IMG/VR virus record: IMGVR_UViG_3300048796_000029
Coordinates: 8,326 to 72,325 of that record
Direction: 5' to 3' (one strand)
DNA from: a virus
Lineage: Duplodnaviria > Caudoviricetes
Length of the DNA: 64,000 nucleotides
Part shown: positions 705 through 6,942 of the stretch, in pieces
How positions within the stretch are numbered: position 1 is the first letter of the stretch
How the letters are laid out: each line of letters starts with the position of its first letter
Position numbers and translations under genes: made by a program
The notes under the pieces: generated by a model
Database searches by the model: none
What the model was told of the DNA's origin: nothing
The model's input: the letters and a program-made list of their open reading frames with translations, nothing else

Positions 705-939
705 AAACTACTCATTACAAATGAGTTATTGGGTCACTCTGTAGTGATGCAGATGTGAGAATTTTCTCTGATTGACTTGGAAGCTGAAATGGCTAACAGG
801 GGGCAAGCGAAAGCAGCCTGAACGACTAAGTGAGAAAACATCTGGAAACAGATGATGCGATAGTCTGACCTGCATGGAATAACAACATGCAGAGGTAAGC
901 AGAAATGACTTGCCTCGGCGAAAGCCGATAACAACGGTG
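705..939 (+). mobile_element. Group I intron 2 (ORF-less, 235 nt) in portal gene
   Basis: P1: ACCU (701-704) with GGGU (731-734), U.G at the junction; same core as intron 1; ends in G939; splicing gives VLEP|NVQRFTVAK. Confidence 0.85.
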
Positions 940-2811
940 AATGTCCAGAGATTTACGGTCGCTAAAGTTTGTAACGCGGTAGTTCCTCAACTGTATAAAG
1001 GGCTTTTCTATGCCGACCCTCCTATGCTGCTGCGCCCGCGCCCCGGAACCACCCAAGATGTTGTGGACGGCAAATCCGCACTGTTCTCTTACCTACTCGA
1101 CGAATGCCGCTTCAAGACGGAGACGAAGTGGGGACTCGAACAGATGGCTTGCCTCGGCACTGGCATCTGGAAATGGGGCATCGTCTACAAGAAAGTTGTG
1201 ACGACCAAGCGCCAAGCCACGGTTACCAACGTGACGACCGGGCCGGACGGCGCACCAACGAATACCGTACTGCCTACAGACGACCTACCGAAGATCACGA
1301 CAACAGAGCGCGTTGTACCCCGCCCGTTCTTTGAGTCGCGGCCACTGAGCCACGTCCTCGTCGATCCTAAGTGCCCGGTTGGAGACATCCGACAGGCCGA
1401 CTTCGTAGCAGACGTTCGCTACCTGAATTTTTACGAACTGGACACGATCCGCGAAGCTCTCTCAGAGCTACCGGACGATCACCCAGACAAGAAGGGCTGG
1501 AATCTTCCGAAGTCTTCGGAGGAGTTGAAGCAGTGGTGGATGCCACCTACTGACAGCGGCCCGCAGTTGCTTTCGAGTGAAGGTGCAACCTACATCGACG
1601 GTGCTGTGTATCATGCGCAGAAAGTTAGCATCGAGGTAACCCCGGACGTACTCTTCGCAAAGAAAGAGGTTCTGGAATACTGGGATCGCAAGCGCAAGAT
1701 CATGGTCATCGACCGTGCCAAGGTAATCTTCTCTGGCGACAATCCATTCGGCGTCATCCCGTTCCTTTCAGCGAACTGGTGGAATAGACCGAAGGCGTTC
1801 TACGGCATGGGACTCGGCCTCATCGTCGGACAGAACCAACGTGTCGATCAGGGAACGATCAACGCCATCCTCAAGATTTTGTCTTTCGGCGTCAACCCGA
1901 TCTACCTGCGCAAGAGGGACACCAATAACCCCACGCAGATGATTCGGACTGGCCTCGGAAAGATTCTCAGCGTTGACGGAGAAGTCGAAAAGGCTTACAA
2001 GCTCATGGACACCCCCAAGGTGCCCGGCGATATCTGGTCGGCGTTGAAAGAGTCCGAGACAGCAACCGAAAGCGCGTCAGGCGCAGACCAAGCTCTTGTG
2101 CAAGGTTCAAGCGCAGGGCCGCGTAGCTCTATGGGGCGCACGGCTGGCGGAGCAAGTCTGCTGGCAGGAGCGAGCGCTACCCGACTCGATGGCCCGCTCG
2201 ACAACTTCATCGAACAGGTGTTCAAGCCGTTCTTGTACATCCTCGACGATCTAATCATGCGGTACCTGTCCGACGCTGAGATCAGTGCAATCCTCGGCGA
2301 CGAGATGAGCAAGGATTACGAACTCGACCTAGACGCCTTCCACAAGGCCCGTATCGAGTACGAAGTCTTGGCTGGATCAAGCCTCGCCGCGAAGCGGACG
2401 ATGGCGCAGTCGTTGACCCTCATCACCCAGATTTTCGAGAACCCCGCCATTCAGCAGAACCTCGCTGAGATCAACGGCGAGTACATCGACTTCAAGCCCA
2501 TCGTTTCGATGTGGATGGAAGCCTCTGAGTGGAAGAACAAAAACGACATCATCAAGCCACTCACCCCTGAGATGAAGGCCAAGCAGCAGGCTCAGTCGCA
2601 GCAGGCGCAAGCGCAATCGAAGGCAGCAGTAACTCAGCAATCCAACCAGCAGAAGTTTCAGCAGAAGTCCCAGCTTGAAGATCAGGCAACTGATAACCGT
2701 ATCCGGCGCGACATCGTACGCGAGGCGTTCCGAGACAACGGTATGAGCGAGGCAACTGAGGGCACTCCCGCAAGCGGTGGACTTGAAGGAATGCAGCCTA
2801 GCGTCCAGTAA
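940..2811 (+). CDS. Portal protein (P22-like head-tail connector), exon 3
   Basis: Long ORF with PFxxxxWxxxPxxFYGMGLG and a Q-rich C-terminal barrel typical of P22-type portals; sits before scaffold and capsid. Confidence 0.8.
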   Translation, partial: NVQRFTVAKVCNAVVPQLYKGLFYADPPMLLRPRPGTTQDVVDGKSALFSYLLDECRFKTETKWGLEQMACLGTGIWKWGIVYKKVVTTKRQATVTNVTTGPDGAPTNTVLPTDDLPKITTTERVVPRPFFESRPLSHVLVDPKCPVGDIRQADFVADVRYLNFYELDTIREALSELPDDHPDKKGWNLPKSSEELKQWWMPPTDSGPQLLSSEGATYIDGAVYHAQKVSIEVTPDVLFAKKEVLEYWDRKRKIMVIDRAKVIFSGDNPFGVIPFLSANWWNRPKAFYGMGLGLIVGQNQRVDQGTINAILKILSFGVNPIYLRKRDTNNPTQMIRTGLGKILSVDGEVEKAYKLMDTPKVPGDIWSALKESETATESASGADQALVQGSSAGPRSSMGRTAGGASLLAGASATRLDGPLDNFIEQVFKPFLYILDDLIMRYLSDAEISAILGDEMSKDYELDLDAFHKARIEYEVLAGSSLAAKRTMAQSLTLITQIFENPAIQQNLAEINGEYIDFKPIVSMWMEASEWKNKNDIIKPLTPEMKAKQQAQSQQAQAQSKAAVTQQSNQQKFQQKSQLEDQATDNRIRRDIVREAFRDNGMSEATEGTPASGGLEGMQPSVQ

Positions 2812-2874
2812 AGAACTGCCCGGTTTGGATGGGGTTCCGGCTTATCAAAAATCCCCATATGCTTAGGAGAGAGC

Positions 2875-3270
2875 ATGGCCTTTGAACCAGTAATTGAACT
2901 GACCGACTTCGAGCGCGGAGAGTTAGCGCAAACATGCGCAACGCCCGGCTTCAAGATTATCCACAAAATCTTGCGGAGTGAAGTAGACAAGTTCGTGGTA
3001 GCACACATGAACACTCCTGTGGAGGATGAGAAGCTGGCCTATGCCCGCTTCGTGCAGTCAAAGACGGCAGCCCAGATTTATCAAGGCATGGCCGACCGCA
3101 TCAACTTAGAGTTGACCGTAGCGGTAGCGCGAAGTAAGGAAGGGCAGACGGAAACTGTAGGCGATTCGACAGAGGGTCTACTTGACCTCGGAGAGATCGC
3201 ATCGAGCGATGTACCAAACCTTCTCGGCGAGTACCGAGAGGATGACGCGCTGGAGGGCGCACATAAATGA
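2875..3270 (+). CDS. Hypothetical protein (head module)
   Basis: 131-aa ORF with GGAG RBS between portal and scaffold. Confidence 0.6.
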   Translation: MAFEPVIELTDFERGELAQTCATPGFKIIHKILRSEVDKFVVAHMNTPVEDEKLAYARFVQSKTAAQIYQGMADRINLELTVAVARSKEGQTETVGDSTEGLLDLGEIASSDVPNLLGEYREDDALEGAHK

Positions 3271-4361
3271 CCATAGAAATTGAACAGCGTTCCCCGGAGG
3301 AAATTGCTTTACTCGCACAGGCAGGGCTTCAGCCTGACGGAGTTACTCCTCTTGAATCGGTGTCAGATACAGTGCCAAGCGTAGAAGCAATTCCTGCCAT
3401 CGAACAGGCTCTAGAACCTGTAGTTTTGGAATATCGCTATCAGCCCAAAGATGAAGCTGGCCGCCCTATGGGTGGACAGCAAGTTATCAAGTACACGACC
3501 CACGAAGAGCTTGCAGACAAGCTCCGCGACAACAGCATTCTGCTTCTGCGAAAGCTCCGTTTGGAGACGCGCAACAATCGCCTAGGCATCACGAATGACG
3601 AGGAGATCGCCGACACAGCACCGCGCTACACGCCCGCCGTGGAGTTCAAGCCGCGTGATCTGACGCAGGAGCAACGTGCAAAGCTGTCCCGTGATCTTCT
3701 CGATCCCGACACCTTCGACCAAGCAGCAGACGAGTTGCTCGAAGCCCGCATCGGCGCAAAGCCGACAGTGCTTGCGAACACCGTCAATCAGCTTCAGCAG
3801 GAGAGCTATCGCCAGAAGGCGTTTGCCGAATCCGAAGCGTTCATGAACTCTAACCCGGACTTCTATCGGTGCGAAGAGAACGGCATGGCTATCACTAGCT
3901 GGTTGGTGCGCTACAAACTAGCCCCTGTGCGCGAGAATTTCCAGAAGGCTTATGCAACCCTGAAAGCCGCTGGAGTCCTCATTGAAGCCGCCGCTCCGCC
4001 GCCGCCCGCGCCCGAGGTAGTCATTCCTCCTCCAGCGCCCGTAGTGGTACCGCCCCCGCCGCCAGCGCCCGAACCTGTAGTTGAGACGCCGCCAGCGCCG
4101 CCCGCCCCGACACCCCGTGCCGGAATCGGAAGCGGTCTGACCCGCGACAACGCATCAGCACCGGGAGTCATCCCAGCGCGTCCCGCAGGCGATGACATCG
4201 TGTACGAGGAAGCCCTACCGGGCGGCCAAGTACGCCGATGGACGGGCCTACAGGCAATCGACCGGATGCCGTCTGAGATTTACAAGCACCGCCTCAAGAC
4301 GGAGCGTGACTTCGCAGGCAAGGTGGACAAGCTCGAAGCCGGACGCGGAAAGAAGAAGTAA
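3267..4361 (+). CDS. Putative capsid scaffolding protein
   Basis: Acidic helical protein with Pro-rich linker (PPPPAPEVVIPPPAP) and basic C-terminus, directly upstream of the capsid gene. Confidence 0.55.
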   Translation: MTIEIEQRSPEEIALLAQAGLQPDGVTPLESVSDTVPSVEAIPAIEQALEPVVLEYRYQPKDEAGRPMGGQQVIKYTTHEELADKLRDNSILLLRKLRLETRNNRLGITNDEEIADTAPRYTPAVEFKPRDLTQEQRAKLSRDLLDPDTFDQAADELLEARIGAKPTVLANTVNQLQQESYRQKAFAESEAFMNSNPDFYRCEENGMAITSWLVRYKLAPVRENFQKAYATLKAAGVLIEAAAPPPPAPEVVIPPPAPVVVPPPPPAPEPVVETPPAPPAPTPRAGIGSGLTRDNASAPGVIPARPAGDDIVYEEALPGGQVRRWTGLQAIDRMPSEIYKHRLKTERDFAGKVDKLEAGRGKKK

Positions 4362-4833: not shown

Positions 4834-4899
4834 ATGGCATACACTCCTGCTGGAAACGTCCAGTCAAACCTCCCTCAGTCCACCGTCAAGTTCTACGAT
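4834..4899 (+). CDS. Major capsid protein, exon 1
   Basis: AAGGA RBS; MAYTPAGNVQSNLPQSTVKFYD joins in frame to KKFRENLKAQTPF at 5126. Confidence 0.8.
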
Positions 4900-5125
4900 A
4901 AACGATAACCTTGTCGTAGTAAAACCTTCTCTGATTGACTTGGAAGCTGAAATGGCTAACAGGGCGCAAGCAATGCTTGACAAAAGCAACGCAGCGTGAG
5001 AGACTAAGTGAGAGGGCGTGAATTGATAACAATTCATGATGCGATAGTCCGAACATACGGGAATAACAACCGTATGAGATCAGCAGAAATGACCTGATCC
5101 GTGCTCTGAAGCACGTAACACATTG
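4900..5125 (+). mobile_element. Group I intron 3 (ORF-less, 226 nt) in capsid gene
   Basis: P1: UACGAU (4894-4899) with GUCGUA (4913-4918), U.G at the junction; shared core; P7 GACUA/UAGUC; ends in G5125. Confidence 0.85.
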
Positions 5126-5959
5126 AAGAAGTTTCGAGAGAACCTCAAGGCTCAAACACCTTTCATCGCCTGTTCCGAACGTCTCGATCTGCCCACCAAG
5201 AGTGGTAATCAGTACGAGATGTTCATGTACGTTCCGCTGGCTGCAAATCAGGCGCAGACCACGGAAGGTTCAGTGGGCAACAGTATCACCGTAAACGTTC
5301 TCCAGACCACCGCAACTATCGGAGAATACGCAGATTACGCCAACTTCTCCTCGCTGTCTCTGGCAACCGCCATCGACAACACTGTCGAGAATGTGGCCCG
5401 CGAAATGTCCTACCGTCTGGGCGAGAGCCTGAGCGGTCTGGTTCGCGCAACTGCGGACGGTGCAAACGCGGTTGACCCCAGCGTTCTCATCGCTCTCCCG
5501 GCAGCTTCGACTTCCAGCTTCACGACTCTCAGCCTGACCGAGATTCGTAACGCTGTCCAGTCCCTCGCTGGTCGTTCTGTGCGTCCGTACGACGAAGCAT
5601 CCAAGGCATTCTGCGGTGTAATCCACCCGTTTGCTCTGGGCGACGTTCTTGCGGATACCGCGAACAACGCACCAATCGACATCCTCAAGCACACTCCGGT
5701 GGGCCTTGCCAAGATGGAAGACCTCCTGAGCACCGACTTGACCGAGATGATCGAACTGCCTAGCTCTGGAGTTCACTTCTTCCAGACGAATCAGGTCACC
5801 ACGACCACGAACTACAAGGGCGTGGCTGGTCTGACGGCACTCCGTACCTACATCTTCGGGCGTGATGGCATCTACAGCATCAAGCTCGGCGCTCAGGGCG
5901 ACACGGAGTTCGGTGACGGCGAGTGGCAGAACATCAACTGCAACATCGTTCAGAACGCT
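5126..5959 (+). CDS. Major capsid protein (N4-gp56-like / HK97 fold), exon 2
   Basis: Contains LPxxSGxxxxMFxYxPL, TATIGEYADY and GVIHP motifs typical of N4-gp56-family capsids. Confidence 0.8.
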
Positions 5960-6010
5960 ATACAGTAGGTTTGGCGTTCTTTTGAAGTTGTGTGGTAACC
6001 GTCCTAAATG
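5960..6010 (+). mobile_element. 51-nt core-less mini-intron (group I-type P1, P10 and terminal G only) in capsid gene
   Basis: Three in-frame stops (5966, 5996, 6005); GAACGCU (5953-5959) pairs with GGCGUUC (5973-5979) with U.G at the junction; AGGUUU (5967-5972) pairs with 3' exon GAACCU (6011-6016); ends in G6010; removal gives IVQNA|EPTVADPEG. Confidence 0.7.
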
Positions 6011-6091
6011 GAACCTACGGTTGCCGATCCCGAGGGGCTGATCCCCGGTTGGACTTCTTACAGAGTCCACTTCACAACTTCGCTCGGCCCT
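6011..6091 (+). CDS. Major capsid protein, exon 3 (81 nt)
   Basis: EPTVADPEGLIPGWTSYRVHFTTSLGP; matches the expected DPxxxxGxxxxK/R-type capsid C-terminal segment. Confidence 0.75.
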
Positions 6092-6318
6092 AAATGCTAA
6101 GTATTGGGGCGAGTAATAAACCTTCTCTGATTGACTTGGAAGCTGAAATGGCTAACAGGGGGCAAGCGCGGATGAAAATCCAAGCAGCCTGAGAGACTAA
6201 GTGAGAGGGAACCTGATAAGCACAGGTTATGCGATAGTCCGATCTTGCAGGAATAAAAACTGCAAGAGGTAGGCAGAAATGTCCTACCTCAGTGACGTAA
6301 GTTACTGATAACAATTTG
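6092..6318 (+). mobile_element. Group I intron 4 (ORF-less, 227 nt) in capsid gene
   Basis: P1: GCCCU (6087-6091) with GGGGC (6106-6110); P10: GUAUU (6101-6105) with GAUAC (6319-6323); shared core; ends in G6318. Confidence 0.85.
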
Positions 6319-6369
6319 GATACGACCATCAGAATCCGCGAAATCGACGCCGCAAGCGCGATCAGCTAA
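6319..6369 (+). CDS. Major capsid protein, exon 4
   Basis: DTTIRIREIDAASAIS-stop, in frame after splicing. Confidence 0.75.
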   Translation, partial: DTTIRIREIDAASAIS

Positions 6370-6385
6370 TTGTTCACAACAGGTC

Positions 6386-6414
6386 TTGACAAAACACTCA
6401 TTGTTTGGTACAAT
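6386..6414 (+). promoter_or_regulatory. Sigma70-type promoter for the HNH gene
   Basis: TTGACA-17 nt-TACAAT; ATG at 6421 lies 7 nt downstream of the -10 box. Confidence 0.7.
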
Positions 6415-6420
6415 GTAATA

Positions 6421-6942
6421 ATGAGAAAACTAGACCTAGCAGGAAAACAATACGGAAGGCTGACACTTGTAAAAGTTGTCGGTGTGAATAAGGCAAAACA
6501 GAGAGTGTGGGAATGCGCTTGCGAGTGCGGTAAAACGCATATCGCGGCGCAAGGCCACCTCACAAAAGGTAAGGTCACCAGTTGTGGTTGCTTCCGAAAG
6601 GAACGCGCAACCACACATGGGATGACTCGCACCCCGGAATGGTTTGCTTACCAACACGCGAAGTCTCGGTGCCAACCGGGACATGAATGTCATGAGCATT
6701 ACTTTGATCGAGGTATAACTTTTGGGTTTACCTCCTTCATGGAGTTCTTTTCCGAGATAGGCTTACGCCCATCGAAGAAGCACTCCGTAGACCGTATCGA
6801 CAACGATAGGGGATACGAACGGGGTAATGTTCGCTGGGCTACAAAATCCCAGCAAGAGCGTAACCGTAGATGTGACAACTGCTGTGAACTAAAAAGCAGG
6901 ATAGCAGAGCTTGAGAAGCGCATTCTCGAACTGACTAAGTAG
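6421..6942 (+). CDS. Free-standing HNH homing endonuclease
   Basis: DLAGKQYGRLT..WECACECG N-terminus, RGI, and SVDRIDNDRGYERGNVRWAT HNH core. Confidence 0.85.
   Translation: MRKLDLAGKQYGRLTLVKVVGVNKAKQRVWECACECGKTHIAAQGHLTKGKVTSCGCFRKERATTHGMTRTPEWFAYQHAKSRCQPGHECHEHYFDRGITFGFTSFMEFFSEIGLRPSKKHSVDRIDNDRGYERGNVRWATKSQQERNRRCDNCCELKSRIAELEKRILELTK

Follow-up and report, generated by a model that had tools for sequence, protein, structure and literature searches.

Putative core-less group I-type mini-introns in a phage major capsid gene and their probable dependence on a neighbouring intron

The interrupted capsid gene

The stretch of DNA analysed here (hereafter the window) comprises 64,000 nt, positions 8,326-72,325 of the ~72-kb IMG/VR record IMGVR_UViG_3300048796_000029, which comes from peat, is metagenome-assembled and has a CheckV completeness of 76%. 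Its head module includes a portal gene and a gene for a major capsid protein of the N4-gp56 type (phrog_1357, major head protein); the exons and introns of the capsid gene and the adjacent endonuclease gene with its promoter all lie on the plus strand. Exon 1 of the capsid gene (4834-4899, encoding M..KFYD) was delineated by tblastn with residues 1-24 of the homologous protein P0002 combined with sequence reading, and is followed by a full group I-type intron (intron 1, 4900-5125) that was recognised by its core motifs and aligns with a family of introns with covarying P3-P9 helices; homologues run FYD-KKFRENL uninterrupted over this position. In a closely related phage (locus L085), the region of capsid intron 1 contains an Endonuclease_7 (PF02945) ORF (3610-3969 of that locus); intron 1 of the window has no ORF.

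Exon 2 (5126-5959), defined by the phrog_1357 match, homologues and a search for P1, ends with eight bases (5952-5959, the last being U5959) that form the 5' strand of the P1 helix of the element of main interest here, a 51-nt insert at 5960-6010, which was delimited by helix search, homologue alignment, covariation and folding and which we describe as a mini-intron without a core. Exon 3 (6011-6091, 81 nt, encoding EPTVADPEG..SLGP; placed by homologue alignment, minimum free energy (MFE) folding and pair counts) includes the target of the P10 helix of the mini-intron (6011-6018), the 3' strands of two further helices, Py (6017-6025) and Px (6073-6081), and the 5' strand of the P1 helix of the next intron (6083-6091). 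This intron (intron 4, 6092-6318), the presumed helper of the mini-intron, is a full group I-type intron, identified by a sub-threshold match to Rfam RF00028, the family consensus and the conservation of P7. Exon 4 (6319-6369, DTTIRIREIDAASAIS, stop codon 6367-6369; assigned from homologues) completes the gene. Further downstream lies a free-standing gene for an HNH homing endonuclease (ATG at 6421 to stop at 6942; phrog_374, E = 2e-41), preceded by a sigma-70-like promoter that was recognised by reading the sequence (TTGACA, 17 nt, TACAAT; 6386-6414).

In the portal gene, two more full group I-type introns, A (421-646) and B (705-939), were identified by core motifs and family alignment, bringing the number of such introns in the window to four, two per gene, the same number as in a preliminary description made from the sequence alone. 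The portal introns are nearly identical, are separated by an exon of 58 nt (647-704), and both follow ..ACCU and carry the same GGGUC guide, a set-up similar to that of the Twort orf142 gene, in which exon skipping could occur. We also suspected a second mini-intron in the portal gene, at 705-720, and rejected it because alignment with the uninterrupted portal protein P0121 identified this segment as the extended P1 loop of the full intron B. Between the portal and capsid genes, an ORF of 364 codons (3267-4361) with proline-rich repeats of the PPPPAP type (~3990-4110) produced no match in Pfam or PHROG; its position suggests a scaffold-like protein.

The interruption of the capsid frame at 5960-6010 is unambiguous at the level of sequence and translation. 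As the preliminary description had noted, the frame ends at TAG 5966-5968 and resumes at GAA 6011, with three in-frame stops in between (5966, 5996 and 6005), and gene calling accordingly rendered the capsid protein as a fragment of 281 aa here and P0120 as a product of 301 aa. Uninterrupted homologues (P0002, P0006 and P0016, each of 343 aa) read ..NCNIVQNAEPTVADPEGLIPGWTSYRVHFTTSLGPDTT.. at this point, as do hundreds of other 343-aa homologues, and the insert falls exactly between ..IVQNA and EPTVADPEG.. of these proteins. When 5959 is joined to 6011 and 6091 to 6319, an alignment that had been suggested for the spliced protein restores the conserved capsid sequence exactly; across the 5959-6011 joint, 48 of 48 residues are identical to P0002. 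The predicted junction reads ..IVQNAEPTVADPEG.. in the joined protein or, in peptide form, ..NIVQNAEPTVADPEGLIPGWTSYR. A relative of 99% amino acid identity (P0001, locus L085) has neither the 51 nt nor intron 4. A Logan contig assembled independently from the source run (1213 nt, depth 12.8) covers positions 4935-6147, including the insert, without a single difference, indicating that the insert is present in the DNA and is not the assembly slip that had been named as a potential refutation.

Helices of the proposed mini-intron and a family of related inserts

Within and around the insert, we identified four helices. P1 pairs 5952-5959 with 5973-5980 (8 bp), with the U5959.G5973 pair at the exon junction, and P10 pairs 5965-5972 with 6011-6018 (up to 8 bp); the two halves of the guide are contiguous, with zero bases between them. 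The internal guide reported in the preliminary description, pairing with both exons and placing a U.G pair at the junction, is therefore present and slightly longer than noted, and the last base of the insert (6010) is indeed G. Past P1, 30 nt of the mini-intron are left, and these are occupied by the 5' strands of Px (5984-5992) and Py (5994-6002), a GUAAC tail and the terminal G6010, in agreement with the earlier point that a catalytic core cannot fit; the shortest members of the family described below are 37 nt long. Rfam yielded no match over 5960-6010 and none at gathering thresholds over the whole window. With regard to membership in group I, the insert has a P1 with the U.G pair, a P10 and the terminal G, and lacks the P3-P9 core with the guanosine site of P7.

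Px is a helix absent from the preliminary description and added by the present analysis. It joins 5984-5992 of the insert to 6073-6081 of exon 3 through 9 bp and ends one base before the 5' strand of the P1 of intron 4. Py (5994-6002 with 6017-6025) is a hairpin with the 3' splice site and the target of P10 in its loop. When 5948-6115 was folded, the MFE structure (z = -5.9) had P1, Px and the P1 of intron 4 side by side and included Py as well.

The exons, the P1 hairpin and the P1 of intron 4 served as anchors for pattern scans, which were combined with look-ups of truncated gene products and revealed 12 additional inserts in other phage contigs. Counting the window copy, there are 13 distinct mini-inserts, with lengths of 37-98 nt, distributed over four sites within the capsid gene; of the 87 stretches returned by the P1-hairpin scan, 84 were chance matches without a capsid gene. 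The site of the window, after QNA or QNV (the QNA site), is also occupied in L081/L082, L083, L084, L103, L126 and L178 (37-52 nt). L174 and L176 have inserts between ADP and EG (53 and 46 nt), L173, L175 and L177, with their duplicates, have inserts within the W codon of PGW (94-98 nt), and L103 has a second insert (L103b, 46 nt) between NQYEM and F. A script that was given only the exon borders found, in all 13 cases, a P1 of 7-9 bp with a U.G pair at the 5' junction, a P10 guide of 5-8 bp at offset 0 from P1, and a terminal G, so that the combination first described for the window recurs throughout the family. Furthermore, the GUAA motif of the 3' tail of the full introns is found in 9 of the 13 inserts, and T precedes all seven distinct QNA-site inserts, compared to ~41% of 70 uninterrupted alleles. 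Only 2 of the 13 lengths are multiples of three, and the in-frame length of the window copy is therefore a coincidence. Identical insert-bearing capsid sequences occur in contigs from three different samples in two instances (L173/L179/L181 and L177/L180/L182), which implies that these genes reside in replicating phage populations. No full-size intron that could be the parent of the inserts was found at the QNA/EPT site, and in IMG/VR the corresponding guide was detected only in mini-inserts.

Several peculiarities of individual inserts deserve mention. The QNA- and ADP-site inserts share an A-rich start with UAG or UAA immediately 5' of the P10 guide (AAUUAG in several of them; 5960-5972 in the window), which suggests common descent with retargeted guides and also suggests that the stop codon might terminate ribosomes early on unspliced RNA. 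The PGW-site inserts of L173, L175 and L177 (94-98 nt) have an extra internal hairpin between P1 and Px, indicating that the family tolerates added peripheral structure. In L103 (IMGVR_UViG_3300050821_002142, 900-3518), a single capsid gene contains four full group I-type introns, one of them with an ORF of ~190 codons, and two mini-inserts (1095-1140 and 2996-3032), the second of which has one full intron 30 nt upstream and another 81 nt downstream.

To assess covariation, we aligned five QNA-site examples. Of the cells in this alignment, 90.6% are in pairs; five base pairs vary at both positions, and no pair varies at one position alone. The covariation score of 0.236 compares with 0.069 for shuffled alignments (0 of 500 reach the observed value) and with 0.079 at the most for slid partners. 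The compensatory changes in P1 and P10 that the preliminary description had proposed to look for in related phages are seen in both helices: in P1, a C-G pair becomes U-A where the exon codon GUU replaces GCU, and in P10, two pairs covary, with the guide tracking GAA, GAG and GCA as the first codon of exon 3. One column of Px has four kinds of standard pair and another has three, in step with synonymous substitutions in the Thr-Thr-Ser codons, and in Py, compensatory changes were noticed by eye in L083, L084 and L174. The exon strand of Px ends 9-10 nt 5' of the 5' splice site of the full intron that follows LGP (intron 4 in the window) in 10 of 10 cases, at whichever site the insert lies. L126 has another full intron as its downstream neighbour, located 27 nt away at another site, and there it is the P1 of this other intron that Px adjoins. 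In single-sequence shuffles, most Px helices are not significant on their own because 6-bp helices are common by chance; the argument for Px is therefore its constant location and its covariation, not helix length. No convincing Px was found in L083 or L103b.

A neighbouring intron as the likely helper

The full introns of this family are credible ribozymes and competent candidate helpers, judging from the covarying P3-P9 and the conserved P7. Their consensus, derived from eight family members, includes P1, P3-P6, P8, P9 and P9.1, with compensatory changes in 34 of 48 pairs, and the P7 strands GACUA/UAGUC are conserved among the full introns, with one compensatory variant. Intron 4 matches Rfam RF00028 over the full length of the model, with a score of 21 bits (E = 0.022) that is below the gathering score of 50. 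It has a covarying group I architecture in which the 3' strand of P1 lies at 6106-6113, the P7 strands at 6195-6199 and 6235-6239, and J7/9 at G6241-A6242, and its 3' tail (..AACAAUUUG) ends with G6318. With the U6091.G6106 pair at its 5' site and the terminal G, intron 4 conforms to the same rules for P1 and the 3' end as the mini-introns, a similarity that had already been pointed out for the full introns of the window.

Every mini-intron has a full intron 27-107 nt downstream. For the six QNA-site examples that were found blind to introns (window, L081, L083, L084, L103 and L126), the distance is 27-81 nt in 6 of 6 cases; among other homologues, about 4 of 119 seem to be interrupted in that stretch, as estimated from product lengths and from the subset of sequences that were read. 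Conversely, the full intron of the window's lineage is present alone, without a mini-insert, in L183. The dependence would be one-way: mini-introns keep company with a full intron, and the full intron also occurs by itself.

An additional line of evidence comes from the 3' ends. In 12 loci, J7/9 is G-A, and the base preceding the terminal G is U in the full intron as well as in the mini-intron. L081 is the single exception: its J7/9 is G-U, and A precedes the terminal G in both the intron (..GAG) and the insert (..CAG), the co-change that a shared P9.0-type contact predicts. Although it traces to one evolutionary event, this co-change hints that both 3' ends are recognised by the same core.

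Collectively, these observations suggest that 5960-6010 is probably a non-autonomous group I-type mini-intron that is removed in cis by the core of intron 4. The earlier proposal of a core-less group I-type intron that depends on the ribozyme of another intron thus gains support from the recurring splice-site grammar, from covariation and from the constant presence of a full intron downstream, and the helper is most likely intron 4 itself, acting in cis, as indicated by the covarying Px tether and by the base before the terminal G that covaries with J7/9. Under this model, what the mini-intron has kept of a group I intron would be the substrate part alone: P1 with its U.G pair, the P10 guide contiguous with it, a short 3' tail of the family type and the G at the end. 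Px would act as a tether that places the P1 of the mini-intron beside the core of intron 4. The ribozyme of intron 4 would then catalyse guanosine attack after U5959 and, in the second step, ligation of the exons after G6010, following which intron 4 would excise itself, to leave an uninterrupted capsid mRNA. That splicing takes place at all is deduced from sequence patterns, as are the reactions involved, the choice of intron 4 as the helper, which excision comes first and how the elements spread. A point against the action of intron 4 in cis is that the mini-intron would be stranded if intron 4 were spliced first, and nothing in the sequence shows how the order would be enforced. In three metatranscriptome runs, we found only relatives of 88-97% identity, with contigs that are continuous through the site and possibly represent uninterrupted alleles; many uninterrupted alleles have exon contexts of this kind, such as GCT with GAGCCA after it, and these contigs are therefore uninformative on splicing.

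The main rival is a possible, although in our estimate unlikely, variant of the same chemistry, in which the mini-intron is spliced by any core of the family that is available in the cell, such as intron 1, the portal introns or excised intron RNA acting in trans, perhaps with a protein cofactor. The window encodes four closely related cores, in L103, L174 and L176 a full intron also precedes the mini-intron by 30-46 nt, and L083 and L103b have no clear tether, all of which is compatible with such help. Against it, the covarying Px always adjoins the P1 of the downstream intron, even where this is a different intron as in L126, and the base before the terminal G tracks J7/9 of the neighbouring intron. 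Moreover, the kinetics of group I ribozymes are well established, and an untethered P1 duplex docks only weakly to the core. Intron 1, in particular, is not presumed to be the helper because it lies 835 nt upstream of the mini-intron.

Considerably less probable is the retention of the insert in the RNA, either with the capsid protein made as two polypeptides, translation stopping at TAG 5966 and starting anew at ATG 6008, or with the insert as the dead remnant of an intron that lost its core. The restart had been raised as an alternative in the preliminary description, and it holds for the window to the extent that ATG 6008 is in frame; moreover, 8 of the 13 mini-introns end with an in-frame UUG or AUG right before the next codon, and AAGGA-like stretches are found upstream of this ending in L174 and L176. 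However, the idea does not generalise, given that an in-frame start is missing in 5 of the 13 (the PGW-site inserts, the insert between NQYEM and F, and L081) and that 11 of the 13 lengths are not multiples of three. The UUG ending is the 3' end typical of the intron family and is also found in full introns, no Shine-Dalgarno sequence was recognised before ATG 6008 when the sequence was read, the inserts occupy four different sites, at two of which they split a codon, and the compensatory changes in P1, P10 and Px, as well as the required U and G at the borders, would be left unexplained. We accordingly regard a split capsid with restart as unlikely. A dead remnant is difficult to reconcile with the intact exons kept in 13 diverged lineages and with the identical insert-bearing genes in contigs from several samples.

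Ribosome bypassing of the type known from T4 gene 60 is very improbable. The insert does resemble the gene 60 MobA cassette: it is of nearly equal size (51 versus 50 nt), has a stop codon early on, opens with a hairpin and has an HNH gene nearby. Bypassing, however, needs take-off and landing codons that are decoded by the same tRNA (bioRxiv 10.1101/2022.08.31.505936). The two codons differ in all 13 mini-introns (GCU versus AUG, CAG or UUG; GUU versus UUG; CCU versus UUG; GGA versus CUU, AUU or UUU; GAG versus GAU), and the insert splits a codon at two sites, so translational bypass fails as an explanation. Finally, an assembly or sequencing artefact, a concern because the window belongs to a metagenome-assembled contig of 76% completeness, is hardly conceivable when the independent assembly of the source run is identical and homologous inserts are found in 12 other contigs from other samples.

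The mini-intron and intron 4, its presumed helper, could also have spread together. In comparison with L085, which lacks both, exon identity is 96-98% over 5395-5934 and drops to 73-84% from ~5950 to the end of the gene (6369), a pattern consistent with a single import of everything from the mini-intron through exon 4. The HNH gene begins 52 nt past the capsid stop codon. A free-standing homing endonuclease that works with a neighbouring intron is an established scheme for phage introns, and the HNH endonuclease is a likely driver in this case: through gene conversion, it would probably move intron 4 and the mini-intron together, along with exons 3 and 4, as one unit. A gene with a sigma-70-like promoter is found right after the capsid stop wherever the LGP-site intron is present (6386-6942 in the window, 3400-3518 in L103 and 2160-2815 in L183); in L081, there is instead an ORF on the opposite strand.

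We lean towards a general model in which one group I core would serially excise two introns from one transcript, a tethered core-less mini-intron and then itself, and in which the mini-introns would constitute a natural non-autonomous family, retargeted to at least four sites by changes in the guide and spread along with the helper by endonuclease-driven gene conversion.

Comparison with known systems

The possession of a ribozyme of their own is what defines group I introns, and our literature search did not find a description of a core-less or helper-dependent group I intron in phages. With the self-splicing introns of phages (T4 td, nrdB and sunY, those of Twort, and the full introns of the window), the mini-introns share the U.G pair at the 5' site, the continuous P1/P10 guide, the terminal G, the family-type 3' tail, residence in an essential gene and the association with a homing endonuclease gene. 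Unlike these introns, they have neither the P3-P9 core nor the guanosine site of P7, and at 37-98 nt they are too short for a ribozyme. Canonical group I introns have no equivalent of the additional helix formed with the downstream exon.

Closely spaced group I introns are known from Twort orf142, with three introns, an exon of 23 nt and exon skipping, and from the 23S rRNA gene of Coxiella burnetii, with a pair of introns around an exon of 34 nt (both summarised in PMC10136302). As in the window, group I-type interruptions lie tens of nucleotides apart in these genes, and neighbouring sites and cores can interact. In contrast to the mini-intron, each of these introns has its own complete core, and the cross-talk leads to exon skipping, that is, to an aberrant or alternative product, and not to obligatory help.

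The 50-nt MobA cassette of T4 gene 60 resembles the mini-introns as a stop-containing insert of ~50 nt in an essential phage gene that is made harmless during gene expression and has its mobility linked to an HNH endonuclease. In gene 60, however, the ribosome uses matched take-off and landing codons, whereas the mini-introns lack these and have splice-site helices. The gene 60 cassette protects against its HNH endonuclease (bioRxiv 10.1101/2022.08.31.505936). The mini-introns might be small patches that shield the capsid gene from other homing endonucleases.

Besides the introns of Twort and Coxiella, the nearest published cases are engineered ribozymes. Tandem Tetrahymena introns have been engineered to work only as one composite ribozyme (PMC10136302). 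In trans-acting and split group I ribozymes, as in the model proposed here for the mini-intron, the core acts on a foreign P1, and substrate and catalyst are separable. Those are laboratory constructs, whereas here the separation appears to be natural, with a covarying tether and a coding exon between the substrate and the core. [quoted passage not shown] Unlike the mini-introns, these belong to other intron classes or are whole cores that have been split, and we know of no degenerate organellar intron that relies on the complete core of an adjacent group I intron which itself splices independently.

At a practical level, stop-containing inserts of 37-100 nt break gene calls in phage genomes, and the grammar described here (U at the end of the 5' exon, an internal guide and a terminal G, in the vicinity of a full intron) allows such annotations to be repaired. 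If the model holds, one ribozyme core would act in vivo on the splice sites of more than one intron, which suggests a route to the dependence of introns on shared splicing machinery, and a natural intron that consists of substrate helices only would give group I introns an equivalent of non-autonomous transposons and of degenerate introns derived from group II.
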